Source of the DNA: Crocosphaera subtropica ATCC 51142
GTDB lineage: Bacteria > Cyanobacteriota > Cyanobacteriia > Cyanobacteriales > Microcystaceae
NCBI RefSeq assembly: GCF_000017845.1
Contig: NC_010546.1
Span: forward strand, 3,300,001 to 3,332,000
Length of the DNA stretch: 32,000 nucleotides
Direction of reading: 5' to 3'
Below the pieces are notes generated by a model that saw only the letters and a program-made list of their open reading frames with translations, made no database searches and had not been told where the DNA came from. The translations under genes and the position numbers were made by a program. This document shows, one piece after another, positions 2,578 to 29,384 of this stretch (position 1 is the first letter of the stretch; every line of letters begins with the position of its first letter).

Positions 2578-2644
2578 AATTTTTTTTAGATACTTAATAA
2601 GTTATTGACTAAATTTCGCCCCATCTCTCCGTTAACATTCAAGC

Positions 2645-3325
2645 TTACCCTTCTCGTAGAACATAACCTACGCCTCGAACTGTATGAATTAACCGTTTAT
2701 GATCTTCATTTTCTATTTTGATGCGTAAGTAACGGATATAAACCTCAATGACATTAGATTCTCCTTGAAATTCTTCTCCCCAAACATTGTCTAAAATCTT
2801 CTCTCGACTCAAAACTTCTTGGGGATGGGACATGAGGTATTTAAGCAACTCAAATTCTTTCATTGTTAAAGCAATTGGGTTATTGTTAACAAACAGTTTT
2901 CGAGTGGTCAAGTCTAGAACAACATCACTATATTGCAGTTGTTCTTTCACAATTTGTGGGGGCGTTAAATAAAAACTAACTAATTTTAATAAAGCGGGAC
3001 TATAATCAGTTTTTAAGAGATAATCATCAGCACCGGCTTCTAGACAAGCAACCCTTTCTTCGACGGTTTCTGTATTAATCATCATAATTAAAATCAGAGA
3101 CTTATCCAGTTTTCTCAACTGAGTGCAGAGGGCAAAACCGGCGTTATCATGAGGATGACGATTAATAACCACCATCGCAGGTTGATGAATGTTTACGTTT
3201 TCGAGGGTTTGACGGATATTATTGATGATAATGGGTGTATAACCTGCTTCTCTTAACTCAGGACAAACACGCTGGGTAAAAGCTTCATCAAGTTCTACTA
3301 AAAAAATACAGGGGTTTAAGCTCAT
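2645..3325 (-). CDS. OmpR/PhoB-family response regulator with degenerate (pseudo-)receiver domain
   Basis: The C-terminal winged-helix region (LTMKEFELLKYLMSHPQEVLSREKILDNVWG...VIEVYIRYLRIKIE...IHTVRGVGYVL) is canonical. In the receiver domain, the acidic pair reads ELDE and the phospho-acceptor position is Asn55 (MVVINR; codon at nt 3161-3163). The conserved Lys is retained (DDYLLK). Confidence 0.85.
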   Translation of the reverse strand: MSLNPCIFLVELDEAFTQRVCPELREAGYTPIIINNIRQTLENVNIHQPAMVVINRHPHDNAGFALCTQLRKLDKSLILIMMINTETVEERVACLEAGADDYLLKTDYSPALLKLVSFYLTPPQIVKEQLQYSDVVLDLTTRKLFVNNNPIALTMKEFELLKYLMSHPQEVLSREKILDNVWGEEFQGESNVIEVYIRYLRIKIENEDHKRLIHTVRGVGYVLREG

Positions 3326-3326
3326 T

Positions 3327-4496
3327 TTACTCAGGGAAAATTTCGGTTACCACACGTTCTTGGCGATCGCTATTGGTGACAACAATATTATTATCAACTA
3401 ACGTGCCGACAGCTTTTTCTCCCGTCAAATTAAATTTAGGGTTTTGATTTTGTTCATAGATGACATTTCCATCAGCTTCAATGGTTTGGGCTAGGATATT
3501 CCAAGTTAAATTATTGGAGTATAATTTACTATCATTGGTTTGATTTATGCCCTTAACCCCTCCTTTGAGATAAGCCATATTTTCTGCTAAGTTCACATGA
3601 GCTTGATTTCCGGTGACAGTAATATTTTGTGCGTATTGAATCAATTGAACCGGTTGACTCGAATAAACTTGACGGGTTTGATAATGCCAAATAATCTCAT
3701 TGGTGGCAATTTGTAACGGGGGTTTAATGGATTTATATTCAATATTTTCTTTGACGATCACTTGTTTTTTATCTAGCAGAACCCTAGCTCGGTTGGCGAC
3801 TAAGCGATCGGTGATAGTTTTATCTTGGAATTTGATCATGGTTAAGAGGCGATCGCCAATGATGGTTTGTTTAGGAACTTCCCAGATTAAATGTTCTGTC
3901 TTTAACTGTAACTGTTTTTTTTCGGCGGTGGCTTCAATTTTGCCAGTTAATTCTAGTTTTTCTTCACGGGTGTTATATTTGCCTTCTTCGGCAGAAGCTT
4001 CGAGTTGAGGATGGGAACCTCGTACATTTTTGCGAATCGTTAACACTGATGCTTTAGGTTGCCATTCTACTTCTTCACTGCGAAGAACCGCCTCATTACG
4101 AGGATCAACCGCTACCACATTGTCTCTGAGAAAAATTTCAGCCCCGTCTCGGTTAATTACACCATAATCAGATTTAACTCGTAATACGATTTCCCCATCT
4201 TGCCAAATATTGCCTTTAACTGCTTTTAAATCAGCTTTTTTGCGATCTGGGCTATATTTTGCCTCATCAACCTGTATTTTCCAGAGAATTTCTCCTTCAG
4301 CATTCGATTGTTCTAAGGTGGCATTTTGTAGTGTTAAATTGGTTTCCTCTCTGGTTTCTCCCGAAGTTTCTAGGTTTTCGGAACTTTGTTTATCTGACTG
4401 ACAAGCAACTAAGGTCAATAGTAGCAGCAACATCACTCCTTGAACCCATTTTAGGGGTAAATAATGCTCTTGTTTTAATTTATGCTGTTGGTTCAT
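3327..4496 (-). CDS. LptC/OstA-like periplasmic lipoprotein (long cyanobacterial LptC-type)
   Basis: Lipobox LTLVAC (Cys32). It contains repeated beta-rich segments of the LptC/OstA type (e.g. LTLQNATLEQSNAEGEILWKIQVDEAKYSPDRKKADLKAVKGNIW). The stop lies 1 nt from the start of the response regulator gene. The family call is from memory only. Confidence 0.5.
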   Translation of the reverse strand: MNQQHKLKQEHYLPLKWVQGVMLLLLLTLVACQSDKQSSENLETSGETREETNLTLQNATLEQSNAEGEILWKIQVDEAKYSPDRKKADLKAVKGNIWQDGEIVLRVKSDYGVINRDGAEIFLRDNVVAVDPRNEAVLRSEEVEWQPKASVLTIRKNVRGSHPQLEASAEEGKYNTREEKLELTGKIEATAEKKQLQLKTEHLIWEVPKQTIIGDRLLTMIKFQDKTITDRLVANRARVLLDKKQVIVKENIEYKSIKPPLQIATNEIIWHYQTRQVYSSQPVQLIQYAQNITVTGNQAHVNLAENMAYLKGGVKGINQTNDSKLYSNNLTWNILAQTIEADGNVIYEQNQNPKFNLTGEKAVGTLVDNNIVVTNSDRQERVVTEIFPE

Positions 4497-4617
4497 TCCC
4501 TTTCAATGATAGTTTGATGTTTCTTAGGCTAATGGGGATAATTGTAACGCTTCCTTATGACTCATGACTACTAATTCCTGCTCTCTCAAACATGATCATC
4601 AACCTGTTTTCTAAGTC

Positions 4618-6045
4618 TTATTTACTCCATTTTCTGCGCCAAAAGAGTAAGGTTTCTAAACAGTTATTTAATAAGTTATTTTCTCTATTTTTTTGCTCTT
4701 GCCATTGTTTAGCAATTTGAAATAATATTTCTGCTGTTGTTCCCTGGGGAGGAAAGACTTTAGAAATATGATGAATTTTGATTTTATTTTTAATAGCTAA
4801 AGCAATAATATTAATAATCTCATCACTATCATTGCCGATAATCTGACACCCTAAAATCAATCCATTACGACGAGTAATCAACTTACAAAATCCAGTTGTT
4901 TCGTCCAAAATCCTAGCTTTCACTAAAGTTTTATAGTTTTGTTTGATAATAATTAAATCATTTTCATATTTTTCTTTAGCTTGAGTTTCTGTTAATCCTA
5001 CTTTTGAGAAAATAGGATTAATTAAAATCCGAACAGGATGATGATCATAATTAACTTTTAAAAAAGGATAAAAAATAGTATTCTTAACGGCAATACTCAC
5101 TTCGTATTTAGCTAGATTAGATAAATTGTATGTTCCTATTCTATTACCACAGGCATAAATTTTAGGGTTGGTGGTTTGTAATTTATGGTTAGTTTTTATT
5201 TTATTGTTTTCTATCTCTACTTTGACTCCTTCTAAATTTAATTCTTTTGTATTGAGTCTTCTTTGATTAATCATAATAATTTCATCGGTTTCTATAGCTT
5301 CATTTCCTGCTTGAATCCATTTTTTACCTTCTATCCTTCTAACTTGAGTAATTGGAGAATTAATGAATAAATTGATTCCTTCTGCTTCTAATATGGCTTG
5401 AATTAGTTGAACAATGTCTTTATCTTCTTGGGGCAAAATATTAGAAGTCTCAACGATCAGAGTAATTTCTTTGCCTAAACGGTTTAATTGTTGTGCGAGT
5501 TCAATTCCTAGGGAGGTTTGAGATACAATCACGATTTGTTGAGGTAGTTTATCTACATCCAATGTTTCAGGAATGATATAGCCCACTGCTGCTACTCCTG
5601 GAATTTTTGGAATAATAGCAATAGAATTCATCGCTAATAAATAACGACGAGATCGTAAGGTTCTATTTTTCAGAACAAAACCCAACTTAGGAAGACGGCA
5701 GAATTCTCCGGGTTCGGCAATAATATCTACTCCTAAATTGGCTAGTTTTTCAAGATAATTTAACTCTTTTATCCCTTGTTTGACTTCATTTTTCCACTGT
5801 TCAGCTTGATAGTAATTTAAGGGAGAAACTGAATTTAACTCTAAGTTCCATTGGTTTAAATTATGCCAATGGCGATGAAGATAAGTCAAATAATTAAAGA
5901 TCAGACTATCCGTTTCGAGACAATGATAATCAGTGCTTTCTCCCAAAACTAAAGCAACTCTGGCATTAAATTTGATGGCTTCTGAAGCAGCAAAAAAAGC
6001 TTCTGGCGTATTACCAATAATAACGAGATCATAATCTAAACTCAT
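4618..6045 (-). CDS. pyridine nucleotide-disulfide oxidoreductase family protein with degenerate cofactor and active-site motifs
   Basis: 475 aa with class-I flavoprotein disulfide reductase architecture (YDLVIIG... / ...IYACGN... / C-terminal dimerisation domain). The GxGxxG motif is GNTPEA and the NAD motif is SQTSLG. I see no CxxxxC and no C-terminal HPT.SE box. Confidence 0.7.
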   Translation of the reverse strand: MSLDYDLVIIGNTPEAFFAASEAIKFNARVALVLGESTDYHCLETDSLIFNYLTYLHRHWHNLNQWNLELNSVSPLNYYQAEQWKNEVKQGIKELNYLEKLANLGVDIIAEPGEFCRLPKLGFVLKNRTLRSRRYLLAMNSIAIIPKIPGVAAVGYIIPETLDVDKLPQQIVIVSQTSLGIELAQQLNRLGKEITLIVETSNILPQEDKDIVQLIQAILEAEGINLFINSPITQVRRIEGKKWIQAGNEAIETDEIIMINQRRLNTKELNLEGVKVEIENNKIKTNHKLQTTNPKIYACGNRIGTYNLSNLAKYEVSIAVKNTIFYPFLKVNYDHHPVRILINPIFSKVGLTETQAKEKYENDLIIIKQNYKTLVKARILDETTGFCKLITRRNGLILGCQIIGNDSDEIINIIALAIKNKIKIHHISKVFPPQGTTAEILFQIAKQWQEQKNRENNLLNNCLETLLFWRRKWSK

Positions 6046-25261: not shown

Positions 25262-25417
25262 AATTTTGAGATTGATAACAGTACAAAAATTAATTAGGGT
25301 TAGGATATTGTTGTATTTTTTATTGTCATTCCGAGGCAACGAGGAATCTCATTCACTTAATAATCATAATGCGTAGTAATATCATTTCATTTTTTGCTTA
25401 AAAAATAATCAAATTTC

Positions 25418-25975
25418 TTAAAATTTTAACCAATTAAATATGTGTTCAACGGTTAACTGTAAATCAATTTCAGTCAAGATAGGTAATAGTTGATCGCCTC
25501 GAAATAATTGTACTTTTTGTTCAGGAAAAATTACTAGAATTGTTTCTTCTTCAGGATAAATTAACCAACCTAATTCTGTGCCATATTGAGAACAATGTAA
25601 CAGATTTTCTAATACTTTACTTGAACTTTGACCAGGGGATAAAATTTCGATTGACCAATCAGGATATATTTCAAAACGGTTAGCAATTTTCCCTGACGCA
25701 GTGATAGGAATTCTTTGCCAACGGAAAACAGAGACATCAGGGATAATAGAATTACCGCCAAAGGTACAACGCAATTCTGAAAAAGCATAAGCGATTTTAG
25801 CATCTTCTGTTACATTATTGATAACAGAACAGAGCTTAGACTGTAATCTACTATGTTCTCCTTGTGGCATGGGTTTTTGTCTAATTTTTCCTTGAATAAA
25901 TTCGCTTCCTGGTTTTGTTTCGGGAAGGGTTAAAAATTCTTCTAAGGTTAAAGGTTTGGCTGGTGTTTTAACCAT
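25418..25975 (-). CDS. Uma2 (DUF820) family endonuclease
   Basis: 185 aa. It shows LTLEEFLTLPE...EFIQGKI..KPMPQGEHS...PDVSVF...PDWSIEILSPG, the Uma2 PD-(D/E)xK-like layout. Confidence 0.8.
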   Translation of the reverse strand: MVKTPAKPLTLEEFLTLPETKPGSEFIQGKIRQKPMPQGEHSRLQSKLCSVINNVTEDAKIAYAFSELRCTFGGNSIIPDVSVFRWQRIPITASGKIANRFEIYPDWSIEILSPGQSSSKVLENLLHCSQYGTELGWLIYPEEETILVIFPEQKVQLFRGDQLLPILTEIDLQLTVEHIFNWLKF

Positions 25976-26082
25976 TGGTTTATTTATCTGACTTTATTTT
26001 TATTATAGGATAAAATAAAAAAGAGAAATTCCTAATTTAGTGATTTTTGATAATAATTTAAACAAAAGGTGAGGTAAAGTCT

Positions 26083-26262
26083 ATTTTTCCCACGACTAAA
26101 CAATGTGTCAGTTGCGTTGAAGTCTGTCTTGACTTGACAGGCTTTTATATTCCAATTTATTTGATAAGATTAGATGAGAGAAACAATCAACTCATCATCT
26201 TAGCAGGGGATGAAATTGAACTAACAATTGATCCAGATGGAGAATGGAGGTTTTTAACATGA
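26083..26262 (+). CDS. candidate small protein (DUF6888-like), no canonical start codon; absent from the ORF track
   Basis: The frame is open over 26062-26259 (..IFPTTKQCVSCVEVCLDLTGFYIPIYLIRLDERNNQLIILAGDEIELTIDPDGEWRFLT). It has no in-frame ATG or GTG. ATT at 26083 lies 8 nt downstream of AAGGTGAGG (26066-26074). Its TGA (26260-26262) overlaps the ATG (26259) of the next gene. Confidence 0.45.
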   Translation: MFPTTKQCVSCVEVCLDLTGFYIPIYLIRLDERNNQLIILAGDEIELTIDPDGEWRFLT

Positions 26263-26462
26263 AAATTGATTTTTCTGCCATGAGTACCCCAGAATTACGT
26301 CGTTATGTTCTACAAAATAGGGATGATAAACCTGCTTTTTATGCTTTGATGGATCGACTTAATTCTAATACATCAACTACCAGTTATCCTTGTCCCAATA
26401 CTCCAGAGAACATAGAAATTATGAAACAAGCAATTAGGAAAAAACTGAATCAAATTCAATAA
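26259..26462 (+). CDS. small protein, DUF6887-like
   Basis: MKIDFSAMSTPELRRYVLQNRDDKPAFYALMDRLNSN... I prefer ATG 26259 (ATGA overlap with the upstream ORF) over the track start at 26244. Confidence 0.6.
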   Translation: MKIDFSAMSTPELRRYVLQNRDDKPAFYALMDRLNSNTSTTSYPCPNTPENIEIMKQAIRKKLNQIQ

Positions 26463-26479
26463 TCCCTAAAGATAAACAA

Positions 26480-26856
26480 CTAATTATCATTGGAAATAAT
26501 AGGAAGAATTCTTATTTTAGAACGACTAAGATCAATAGTCACTAATGCACCTGATTCTAACTCAGATTGAAAACGAGTTAAAGATTGAATCAAAATTGTT
26601 TCTAAAGATTGGGGAAATAAATCTTGAGTGCGTACTTGAATAACACTAGGAAATTGTGCCTGAGTAGCTGCTAGTAATGCACCAAAATCTAGATCATTAG
26701 TAAATATAATATAGTTATTGTCTAATGCCCATTCCATGATAACTTTATCAGTAGCACTAGGATTTCCTATGCTTGACCAATGTTTTGCTTCTATCTCATA
26801 TTTAGAAAAATATTAACCCAATCTGGTGATAAATTCATATCAATTAAGATTTTCAT
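26480..26856 (-). pseudogene. DUF5615 family PIN-like (Mut7-C-like) putative toxin, frameshifted
   Basis: ATG 26856 gives MKILIDMNLSPDWVNIFLNMR*. The rest (..KYEIEAKHWSSIGNPSATDKVIMEWALDNNYIIFTNDLDFGALLA...) is in another frame. Adding one base to the A5 run at 26806-26810 (T5 on the coding strand) restores ..DWVNIFSKYEIEAKHW.. Confidence 0.7.
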
Positions 26857-27083
26857 ACCATGTTTAGATCAATTTCTCTCTCTTCGACTCGCCATGCTGC
26901 ATAGGTTAATGCTTCATAGATATCAGCTTCTTCTAGATAAGGATAAGCTATTAAAATCTCTTGTATAGAACGTCCAGCAGCCATTAAACCGACGATTGTT
27001 CCAACTGTTACCCTCATCCCTCTAATACAAGGTTTGCCCCCCATAACTTCAGGATTAATTGTTATTCTCGTTAGTGTTTTCAT
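26853..27083 (-). CDS. DUF433 domain protein (putative antitoxin partner of DUF5615)
   Basis: ITINPEVMGGKPCIRGMRVTVGTIVGLMAAG.S..EILIAYPYLEEADIYEAL.YA is the DUF433 core. Its TGA overlaps the ATG of the DUF5615 gene (ATGA). Confidence 0.8.
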   Translation of the reverse strand: MKTLTRITINPEVMGGKPCIRGMRVTVGTIVGLMAAGRSIQEILIAYPYLEEADIYEALTYAAWRVEEREIDLNMV

Positions 27084-27322
27084 TTAATTCAATTCCTAAA
27101 TTTAATCTAAATTGAGTAAGCCTTAACTTCCTAGATTTATAATCCAATATGTTGAGTTTAACGTATTTGAAGTTAAGAAGAAAAAGTTTTAATCATTGAT
27201 GATTTTACGAAATTACACTGATAAGAGATCAAAAATTTATAATTTTTTCTGTAATTATACCAGTTTACGAAATGTATATTTATTGAGCTATACTAATTTC
27301 TAAGAAATTAAAGGATTAATGT

Positions 27323-27493
27323 ATGTCTACTACAAATAACTCAGAATCAATGATTAAAGCTGCTAGTTTAGGCTCAAAAATTGTTAAAGCGGTTGCTCCT
27401 CCTCTTACAGAAGTTCTTATTGATGAGCTAGAAATCAAGCATAAAGAAGAACGTAACAAAACACAAGATAAACAACGTTGGTCTTCTAAATAA
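27323..27493 (+). CDS. candidate 56-aa hydrophilic protein upstream of the LRAT-like gene (absent from the ORF track)
   Basis: The ATG at 27323 is preceded by AAGGA (27311-27315). Translation: MSTTNNSESMIKAASLGSKIVKAVAPPLTEVLIDELEIKHKEERNKTQDKQRWSSK*. It ends 9 nt before the ATG at 27503. The opposite-strand track ORF 27316-27510 is Leu/Ser/Cys-rich and looks like a shadow ORF. Confidence 0.4.
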   Translation: MSTTNNSESMIKAASLGSKIVKAVAPPLTEVLIDELEIKHKEERNKTQDKQRWSSK

Positions 27494-27502
27494 GAAAAGT
27501 AG

Positions 27503-28330
27503 ATGAACACAAACGTTAGAACTAAAAATCCTAATCCTGGAAAAGCTTTTGAGCTACTAGGAGAAATTCACAATCATTTACATAATAAAGTAATTGGTCA
27601 CGAATTATCTCAAATTGCTAGACATACAAAAGACAAAGAAATAAGAGAAATTTGTAAACAAGCAGCTAATTGCTTAGAAATTAGAATTAATACCGATTTT
27701 CATCGTATTGACTATGAACAATGTAAAAAATCTTTGACTACTTTAGTTCGCCATTTAAAACAGGCAAAAGAAAAATTTGATAAAGTAGTAGAGTTGGTTC
27801 CTGACTTAAATCAAAAATGGATAGAAAAACCCTTTAGAGAAACTCAACTGTTGTTATTAGATATTTCCAACTACCTAACACTTTTAGATCGAGAACATGA
27901 TATCTATGATCAAAATGATACAGTAGTAAAAATTGGTGATCTGGTTGCTGTAAATTGTACTGATGAAAATAACAAACCCTATAAGCATTATGGTATTGTA
28001 GTTTCTAGTAGTCGAGGATTTAGGGTTGCTCATTTCTTCACTGGAGAAACTGTAAAAGCACAAAATAGTATCGTTGAAAAAGGGTTTGGATATATTCATG
28101 AAGTTCGTTATTCATCAGATTGGTTAGTTCAAGAACATTTACCTAAATCTATTCCTTACAGCGATGTTGAAGACAGAATAAAAGCCTCCAGAAAAATTGA
28201 GCGAAGAGTGTGGAATAAAGTTAGTTATAATTGTGAACATTGGGCAAGAGAAATGTTTACAGGTCAAGCTGAATGTACACAGCTTAAACAATTAAAAGAA
28301 GAACGGAGAAATAACAGAAATAAATCCTAG
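27503..28330 (+). CDS. uncharacterised protein with a C-terminal LRAT/PLAAT-like (NlpC/P60 superfamily) domain
   Basis: GDLVAV...YKHYGIVV (His162), FRVAHF (His177) and SYNCEHWAREMFTGQAECTQ (Cys244) match the His-His-Cys triad and the NCEH box of LRAT/H-rev107-type acyltransferases/phospholipases. The N-terminal ~135 aa are helical with no motif I recognise. Confidence 0.7.
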   Translation: MNTNVRTKNPNPGKAFELLGEIHNHLHNKVIGHELSQIARHTKDKEIREICKQAANCLEIRINTDFHRIDYEQCKKSLTTLVRHLKQAKEKFDKVVELVPDLNQKWIEKPFRETQLLLLDISNYLTLLDREHDIYDQNDTVVKIGDLVAVNCTDENNKPYKHYGIVVSSSRGFRVAHFFTGETVKAQNSIVEKGFGYIHEVRYSSDWLVQEHLPKSIPYSDVEDRIKASRKIERRVWNKVSYNCEHWAREMFTGQAECTQLKQLKEERRNNRNKS

Positions 28331-28352
28331 GGTGGCATTGCCCACCTTACAA
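28328..28352 (+). repeat. 25-nt GC-hairpin element TAGGGTGGCATTGCCCACCTTACAA (copy 1)
   Basis: It starts at the stop codon of the LRAT-like gene. It is near-identical to the reverse complement of 29359-29384. Confidence 0.8.
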
Positions 28353-29358: not shown

Positions 29359-29384
29359 TTGTAAGGTGGGCAATACCCACCCTA
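29359..29384 (-). repeat. 26-nt GC-hairpin element (copy 2, inverted): reverse complement TAGGGTGGGTATTGCCCACCTTACAA
   Basis: It lies 3 nt past the clpB stop codon on the minus strand. The GGTGGG/CCCACC stem is 6 bp. Confidence 0.8.

Follow-up and report, generated by a model that had tools for sequence, protein, structure and literature searches.

In this study, we used sequence comparison, profile searches, and structure prediction to characterize the gene pair cce_3217–cce_3218 of the cyanobacterium Crocosphaera subtropica ATCC 51142, which lies in a stretch of 32,000 nucleotides (nt) of contig NC_010546.1 (positions 3,300,001 to 3,332,000, forward strand), referred to here as the window. 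The pair forms an accessory operon of two genes that is complete in itself and occurs only in cyanobacteria. Its large protein is soluble and carries an intact Cys-His-His catalytic domain of the LRAT/PLAAT type behind a helical bundle that is specific to the family; its small gene is, as judged from its conservation and divergence, a real, translationally coupled partner of the enzyme gene that diverges together with it and evolves faster. A preliminary description, made from the sequence of the window alone, had proposed a toxin-immunity or abortive-infection module. The pairing of the genes holds across homologous loci and the cassette behaves as an accessory module; the toxin-immunity role is one that we infer, and we put forward only tentatively that the cassette is a new toxin-antitoxin (TA)-like or abortive-infection-like module with a lipid-directed effector.

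The two open reading frames (ORFs), encoding 56 and 275 amino acids (aa), are co-directional on the plus strand, lie 9 nt apart, and share one frame, with TAA GAA AAG TAG separating them. The larger is cce_3218 (UniProt B1WXM5), already named “LRAT domain-containing protein” in that database. The smaller had been described as lying outside the ORF track, yet it matches exactly the annotated gene cce_3217 (ACB52565.1 in GenBank) and is called by independent gene callers too. The features named in the preliminary description, namely both ORFs, the catalytic codons, the Shine-Dalgarno sequence, and the upstream repeat and TATACT motif, were all recovered in the sequence, at the positions stated there, and its reading of the large protein as an H-rev107-type enzyme with an intact His-His-Cys set agrees with each of the three lines of evidence that follow.

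The LRAT/PLAAT-type enzyme and its small partner gene

At the sequence level, the assignment of residues 142 to 256 of cce_3218 to the LRAT/PLAAT family is solid, in that (i) Pfam family PF04970 (LRAT) matches these residues with 25.8 bits against a gathering cut-off of 24.3 bits, over profile positions 3 to 119 of 120, and is matched by 23 of 33 homologues (E < 0.01); (ii) alignment of the family profile to PLAAT-type domains with hhalign gives a probability of 98% (E = 1.6e-13, 115 columns) and aligns His162 and His177 with the pair of histidines of PLAAT and Cys244 with the cysteine of the NCEHF motif; and (iii) His162 (CAT, 27986–27988), His177 (CAT, 28031–28033), and Cys244 (TGT, 28232–28234, within NCEHW) are invariant across an alignment of 33 sequences, together with Tyr160, Tyr163-Gly164, Gly194, Gly196-Tyr197, Trp237, Tyr242-Asn243, and His246. 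LRAT is reported to have such a Cys-His-His triad (PMC10318531). The AlphaFold2 model of cce_3218 (predicted local distance difference test [pLDDT], 90.1; predicted template modeling score [pTM], 0.75) consists of five N-terminal helices followed by a beta-rich domain, in which Cys244 starts a helix (residues 244–253), and closes with a highly charged C-terminal helix (residues 259–274). Neither protein has a transmembrane (TM) segment, the highest 19-residue Kyte-Doolittle means being 0.54 for cce_3218 and 1.02 for cce_3217 (threshold, ∼1.6), and cce_3218 has no signal peptide, as had been read from its sequence before.

Searches of structure databases were less telling. Foldseek with the full-length model against the PDB returned no PLAAT chain among the top 50 matches, all of which were helical bundles with E values of at least 0.17; a profile search of PDB sequences ranked PLAAT3 (4dot) first, over the NCEH motif and weakly (E = 0.029), and a single-sequence phmmer search of the PDB gave no useful match. 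Against a viral library, the best Foldseek matches were Picornavirales polyproteins (E = 2.6e-5 to 7.4e-4, probability 1.0), with poor superpositions (root mean square deviation, 16 to 24 Å). H-rev107-like domains of the H-box/NC type are known from some of the picornavirus 2A proteins; the likeness of the cassette to these proteins is limited to this structural match to Picornavirales polyproteins and implies no biological link. Three matches of the deep search (P0055, P0066, and P0075) contain three to nine tandem PLAAT-like domains, some with the catalytic cysteine replaced (NSEHF/NSKHF), and are probably of eukaryotic origin.

The chemistry of the domain could in principle lie elsewhere in its superfamily, in which case cce_3218 would be a papain-like amidase or peptidase with a non-lipid substrate that processes the small protein or another peptide or isopeptide. 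The NlpC/P60 superfamily does include amidases and deconjugating peptidases (YiiX/C92, PPPDE/DeSI), and a soluble protein with no membrane anchor would suit such a role. However, the specific match is to LRAT/PLAAT with its NCEH(W/F) motif, no NlpC/P60 Pfam family other than PF04970 matched cce_3218, and all characterized LRAT/PLAAT members act on acyl esters, so that we regard a peptidase as very improbable.

The N-terminal region of ∼135 aa, in which the preliminary description could place no motif, is helical in the model (residues 12–26, 29–40, 45–57, 71–101, and 104–128) and has no known relative outside the family: it has no Pfam match, and an exhaustive search of 1.84 billion representative proteins found it only within the cce_3218 family or fragments thereof. 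Its invariant residues include Asp44, Cys51, and Trp106, and His41, Thr42, and His84 are near-invariant. A ferritin-like reading of this domain was dropped because the full-length Foldseek matches to ferritin/Dps/BAG-like bundles in the PDB were non-significant. Residues 70 to 147 (27710–27943) form a helical hairpin with the invariant Trp106 at its turn, which weakly matches the WXG100-like proteins SAG1039 and gbs1074 (E = 0.12 to 0.15, non-significant), Trp106 falling on the WXG tryptophan; we rejected a WXG100 likeness of helices 4 and 5 at these E values and dropped the analogy with LXG proteins and type VII secretion for want of support.

Does a small gene always precede homologues of the enzyme, as the preliminary description had asked? 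It does in 32 of the 33 loci with readable upstream sequence, which come from species genomes, metagenomes, and plasmids and in which an ORF of 38 to 101 aa lies directly upstream of the enzyme gene. The proteins encoded there follow a weak but consistent pattern, with an N-terminal MS, a Ser-rich S-S-K stretch whose Ser is near-invariant, A-P-x-h-S-E-x-L-h-E, a conserved Glu, and a Lys-rich tail; the core of cce_3217 itself reads S-x-S-K ... A-P-x-h-(S/T)-E-x-L-h-(D/E) ... E before its Lys-rich tail. No Pfam, NCBIfam, or PHROG family matched cce_3217. The enzymes fall into two paralogous clades, each with its own type of small protein, and one Nostoc genome has both. The two genes lie +9 to +167 nt apart in clade I and overlap by 11 to 50 nt in clade II. 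The pairwise identity of the small proteins co-varies with that of the large ones (rho = 0.69; means, 28% and 49%, respectively), and the rate of nonsynonymous substitution (dN) of the small gene is about twice that of the enzyme gene.

Might the small ORF nevertheless be a chance ORF, or a mere leader, and the enzyme work alone? Three observations lean that way, namely the low mean identity of the small proteins, a ratio of nonsynonymous to synonymous substitution rates (dN/dS) that is 0.8 for the most similar pairs of clade I, and one locus (L008) that lacks the small ORF. Against it, the ORF is homologous and in the same position in those 32 loci, which span ∼35% enzyme identity; its dN/dS is 0.12 to 0.34 in diverged pairs, and the gene is therefore coding and under purifying selection; a Shine-Dalgarno-like sequence of the AAGGA/GGAG type precedes it in many loci, including the window (AAGGA, 27311–27315, 7 nt before the cce_3217 ATG); and 40 clusters of homologous small proteins exist in public gene calls. 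We consider a chance ORF or leader extremely improbable.

Some copies of the pair depart from the pattern. At locus L023 (Nostoc sp. CCY 9925, clade II copy, 1247–2228), the small gene is interrupted by an in-frame stop after codon 41, and the enzyme has the substitution C51Y at the otherwise invariant Cys51; the same genome also has a clade I pair (P0019), and the paralogous copy may be decaying. At locus L012, the small ORF has no canonical start upstream of its conserved core. In clade II (L016, 461–480, and equivalent positions), a single stretch of nucleotides encodes, in different frames, both the C-terminal K-S-F-stop of the small protein and the N-terminal P-N-P-S-K of the enzyme, and part of the conservation of the clade II C terminus may therefore reflect constraint from the overlap. 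KSF or SSF also ends small proteins of clade I whose genes do not overlap the enzyme gene (L037, L007).

An accessory cassette and its possible function

The cassette was found in ∼30 of 185,579 species-level genomes, all cyanobacterial and from several orders. Among 1.84 billion representative proteins, 26 matched the enzyme family, and 5.8 billion proteins yielded 51 clusters of full-length enzyme homologues, likewise cyanobacterial. On the whole, the cassette behaves as an accessory, mobile module that is often lost, and comparison with two congeners shows that it moves and is lost as one unit. In Crocosphaera XPORK-15E (locus L001), homology to the window is confined to 27194–28323 and a short palindrome; because homology stops at these edges and the sequences beyond them are unrelated, the cassette (∼1.15 kb with the 130 nt upstream of the small gene) occupies different loci in the two strains. 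Crocosphaera MO_202.B2 (locus L031) is syntenic with the window (DUF3370, Uma2, and clpB genes), and there both genes are deleted, the upstream block running, at an AATTATA microhomology, straight into the final ∼100 nt of the enzyme gene. Remnants of the 3′ end occur at 6 of 32 genome loci; their polarity is meaningless because the search patterns favor 3′ ends. Two large plasmids carry copies, one of which adjoins the DISARM gene drmD, a VapC pair, and GIY-YIG nucleases. Across 29 loci, we found no conserved third gene. Candidates for additional members (nadC, ABC transporters, and an ORF of ∼235 aa) were rejected, as they belong to Nostoc-clade synteny and remain where the cassette has decayed.

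We favor, with due reserve, a TA-like or abortive-infection-like role because the small gene is paired upstream with the enzyme gene, co-diverges with it, and evolves fast, because the cassette is patchy and mobile, and because there are precedents for toxic enzymes of this kind. As in type II TA systems, the adjacent pair is kept as a unit, both in the 32 of 33 loci and in that the homology of relocated copies is limited to the cassette. Tox-Act1 is a permuted NlpC/P60 phospholipase toxin whose toxicity needs its His and Cys (PMC12994826), and expression of LnsA, a bacterial LRAT-like enzyme, is extremely toxic in Escherichia coli (PMC13559823). By analogy with PLAAT, LRAT, Tox-Act1, and LnsA, Cys244 would be activated by His162, with His177 orienting His162, and would attack an acyl ester of a membrane glycerolipid to form an acyl-thioester, which would then be hydrolyzed, causing damage of the phospholipase A type, or handed to an acceptor. 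The small, basic, and largely disordered protein would bind the enzyme through its conserved central segment and hold it inactive, in the manner of an antitoxin or immunity protein; once this partner was lost by proteolysis or by a block in synthesis, under stress or infection, the free enzyme would damage membranes and growth would stop. In line with the preliminary description, no described defense or TA model matched the cassette, PADLOC giving no significant match, and our literature search found no link between LRAT and phage defense, nor anything on cce_3217, cce_3218, or an “LRAT domain” in cyanobacteria. Neither gene appears in the supplements of two omics papers on Cyanothece.

Several observations weigh against such a role: (i) in contrast to most TA families, this one occurs in cyanobacteria alone, and no phage-borne copy was found in 50,697 phage records or in IMG/VR contigs; (ii) the genes next to the cassette vary across the 29 loci and are mostly of the housekeeping kind, with only Uma2 (7 of 129 flanking ORFs) and a handful of TA genes recurring among families of mobile type, and in the Nostoc clade the cassette stands in stable synteny beside nadC; (iii) PADLOC has no match for the enzyme and only a non-significant one for the small protein (a homing endonuclease model, E = 0.029), in which Pfam, NCBIfam, PADLOC, and PHROG recognize no DNA-binding or antitoxin domain; (iv) the enzyme lacks the terminal TM anchor of eukaryotic PLAAT/LRAT enzymes; (v) the enzyme at L008 is intact (His, His, Cys, Asp44, and Cys51) with no small ORF within its 12.8-kb locus, which speaks, weakly, against obligate neutralization; and (vi) in a fused-chain AlphaFold2 model, computed from a shallow, unpaired alignment, the small part is undocked and has a pLDDT of 30 to 59. 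The TA-rich setting is local to Crocosphaera, because the neighbors elsewhere are mostly housekeeping genes, and the enrichment beside defense or TA genes suggested by the preliminary description does not hold in general.

Some of these points would suit an accessory lipid-remodeling enzyme that has no part in conflict, acts on thylakoid or plasma-membrane acyl chains under particular conditions, and is assisted by a small subunit for regulation or assembly. The small protein would then tune the activity, stability, or membrane recruitment of the enzyme; its residues 12 to 32 are moderately amphipathic (hydrophobic moment, 0.46 to 0.47) and could provide the membrane contact that the enzyme lacks. 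The housekeeping neighborhoods, the stable synteny in Nostoc and also in the P0051 lineage, and the intact orphan enzyme of L008, which lies beside a membrane-protein gene, fit this explanation, as does the requirement of LnsA for its non-catalytic partner LnsB (PMC13559823). It accounts poorly, however, for a sparse and patchy distribution with frequent pseudogenization, for copies in islands and on plasmids, for a partner that evolves fast, and for paralogous cognate pairs within one genome, and we think it unlikely.

The conserved residues of the small protein raise another alternative, in which it is not a regulator but a dedicated acyl acceptor, the enzyme moving an acyl chain from a lipid to the Ser of S-S-K or to a Lys of the tail and so producing a lipidated micro-protein. 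The near-invariant Ser18 and the Lys-rich tail are suitable sites, since the chemistry of the LRAT family is acyl transfer onto hydroxyl or amine acceptors, and a precursor gene just upstream of its modifying enzyme is the usual layout for ribosomally synthesized and posttranslationally modified peptides. RID and IcsB, which have a related permuted papain fold, acylate lysines in polybasic tails, and we count this too in favor of an acceptor. LnsA, moreover, N-acylates proteins (PMC13559823). On the other side, the Ser lies in a Ser-rich, easily misaligned stretch; only the two genes are conserved, with no conserved maturase, protease, or exporter gene nearby; the fused AlphaFold model puts no peptide at the active site; at L008, a substrate gene for the enzyme is missing; and the tight translational coupling suggests a 1:1 stoichiometry rather than that of an enzyme and its substrate. 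On balance, an acyl acceptor appears decidedly unlikely. The most far-reaching outcome that we envisage, and one to which we give little weight, is that the enzyme, rather than merely damaging membranes, lipidates its own co-encoded micro-protein, on the conserved Ser or a Lys of the basic tail, which would make the two a cytoplasmic pair for protein lipidation, encoded ribosomally, and provide the first defined substrate for a bacterial enzyme of the LRAT family proper; in a less radical version, the cassette would be the first TA or abortive-infection family with a PLAAT-type phospholipase toxin.

Flanking elements and local setting

Table 1. Features of the cce_3217–cce_3218 cassette (positions within the window)
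Feature	Position	Strand	Basis
Conserved upstream region, putative promoter and 5′ untranslated region	27194..27322	+	Homology to L001; block surviving in L031
Small partner gene cce_3217 (56 aa; hydrophilic, basic, isoelectric point 9.2)	27323..27493	+	ORF, exact database match, upstream homologues
Enzyme gene cce_3218 (275 aa; N-terminal helical bundle and C-terminal LRAT/PLAAT domain)	27503..28330	+	ORF, UniProt identity, homologues, AlphaFold model
Family-specific N-terminal five-helix domain (residues ∼12–128)	27536..27886	+	AlphaFold model, conservation
LRAT/PLAAT-type (circularly permuted NlpC/P60) domain (residues 142–256)	27926..28270	+	Pfam, hhalign, invariant triad
Near-palindrome GGGTGGCATTGCCCACC over the stop codon, 3′ edge of the cassette	28330..28346	.	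Sequence, L001/L031 comparison

The region upstream of cce_3217 is delimited by the abrupt start of the L001 homology at 27194, and the same block is kept in the L031 remnant (Table 1). It had been suggested to hold, possibly, an operator and promoter, formed by a 10-nt direct repeat (TTTACGAAAT, 27204–27213 and 27264–27273) and a TATACT (27289–27294). Both elements are present. A repeat of at least 10 nt arises in 386 of 2,000 shuffles (19%) of the 239-nt AT-rich spacer, and TTTACGAAAT is kept in close Crocosphaera relatives only (10/10 and 8/10 positions in L001, partly in the L031 remnant), so that we rejected the pair of repeats as an operator, it being neither significant nor conserved outside Crocosphaera. 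L001 retains TATACT, L031 has TATAAT in its place, and the motif is compatible with a −10 box with TTTACG as the −35 element 19 nt upstream. A promoter scan called nothing upstream of the small ORF; it misses TATACT because the TTTACG–TATACT spacer is 19 nt.

At the opposite edge, the near-palindrome GGGTGGCATTGCCCACC may form a hairpin, which has no U-tract, and the scan for intrinsic terminators called none. The element is kept after the L031 remnant, and a similar one lies ∼85 nt downstream of the L001 cassette. Within the window, GGGTGGCATTGCCCACC and GGTGGGCAATACCCACC (29365–29381) are 17-nt near-palindromes that are mutually reverse-complementary and bracket the UPF0175/DUF3368 module downstream of the cassette; L001 has one copy after its cassette, and L031 has a single copy and no UPF0175/DUF3368 module. 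This arrangement suggests that the module was inserted or excised at the palindrome.

The local setting of the cassette is as the preliminary description had it: Pfam searches place it between a DUF433/DUF5615 and a UPF0175/DUF3368 module, with Uma2 and DUF6887 genes farther out, and it lies in an AT-rich patch (27 to 35% GC across ∼25.0 to 29.5 kb, compared to ∼36 to 52% in the flanks) free of HIP1, of which the window has 12 sites and none between 22,788 and 31,401. Rfam and tRNA scans of the window gave no match. The TA genes around the cassette site differ between the window and L031. Between DUF3370/Uma2 and clpB, the window has DUF6887 and DUF5615/DUF433 genes (25300–27190), and L031 has a HigB/HigA-like pair and an AAA-ATPase with a 255-aa partner (2606–5866); this site is a hypervariable TA/defense hotspot in the two Crocosphaera genomes. 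In the window, the gene for the PIN-like toxin DUF5615, partner of DUF433 (26480–26851, minus strand), looks frameshifted: its N-terminal part (ILIDMNLSPDWVNIFLNMR, ending at a stop) and the ORF 26480–26737 are in different frames, and the latter covers only positions 41 to 109 of the 110 of the Pfam DUF5615 profile. The split gene is either a pseudogene or the result of a sequencing error.

No secretion family was among the 25 most frequent Pfam families of the 129 flanking ORFs. At locus L046, in a Calothrix-type genome, a gene for an RPE65-family carotenoid oxygenase (401–1903) lies ∼4 kb upstream of the cassette. In the visual cycle of vertebrates, LRAT and RPE65 act one after the other; the association was seen in one lineage only and is probably a coincidence.

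Relation to known systems

PLAAT/LRAT enzymes have roles in vertebrate lipid signaling, vitamin A storage, organelle clearance, and picornavirus entry, and their bacterial relatives within the LRAT family proper have hardly been studied. The cassette is a small bacterial counterpart that is amenable to genetics and combines a new N-terminal domain with a dedicated small partner, in a model cyanobacterium (Cyanothece/Crocosphaera 51142). If it is a TA-like or defense module, a lipid-directed acyl-enzyme would join the known cytoplasmic toxin chemistries and cyanobacteria would gain a new candidate defense system; if the partner is a substrate, the pair would represent a new route of protein lipidation. 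On either reading, it offers a simple system for studying how a PLAAT-type active site is kept in check. With the eukaryotic PLAAT (H-rev107/HRASLS) and LRAT enzymes of PF04970, cce_3218 shares the permuted His...His...Cys order, the NCEH(F/W) motif, and the N-terminal GDL(I/V) strand. It differs from them in having neither an N- nor a C-terminal TM anchor and in the fusion of a family-specific helical bundle of ∼130 aa to its N terminus, and the cassette differs in being bacterial, accessory, and mobile, with a small partner gene that looks obligate.

Among bacterial systems, the effectors Tox-Act1 and TseH of type VI secretion systems (T6SS) resemble the cassette in combining a permuted NlpC/P60 enzyme with a cognate partner (PMC12994826); their lipid target, His/Cys-dependent toxicity, and protective protein are known, whereas we infer the counterparts here. 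Tox-Act1 and TseH (DUF6695) belong to clades other than LRAT and are secreted, act in the periplasm, are linked to T6SS or type V secretion, and have a membrane-associated immunity protein; the cassette, in contrast, has no secretion genes, both of its proteins are soluble and cytoplasmic, and the partner is tiny and encoded upstream. LnsA and LnsB of Staphylococcus aureus likewise pair a bacterial LRAT-like permuted NlpC/P60 acyltransferase with a second, non-catalytic protein, LnsA taking the sn-1 acyl chain of a phospholipid and having the N terminus of a lipoprotein as substrate (PMC13559823, PMC7387801). Unlike cce_3218, LnsA is secreted and has its signal peptide cleaved, and the gene for LnsB, a polytopic CPBP membrane protein, is not contiguous with that for LnsA.

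With type II TA systems, finally, the cassette shares a layout of two small, closely spaced or overlapping genes in the same direction, of which the smaller lies upstream and encodes a fast-evolving, partly disordered partner, as well as a patchy occurrence in islands and on plasmids and frequent loss. It departs from them in that the small protein has no DNA-binding domain, in that no TA or defense hidden Markov model matches, in its restriction to one phylum, and in its candidate effector, an acyl-enzyme of a type not described as a TA toxin. The catalytic domain comes from a known family, whereas three aspects appear to be undescribed, namely the N-terminal domain, the constant association with a micro-protein, and the format of a cytoplasmic, anchor-less enzyme in a mobile cassette.

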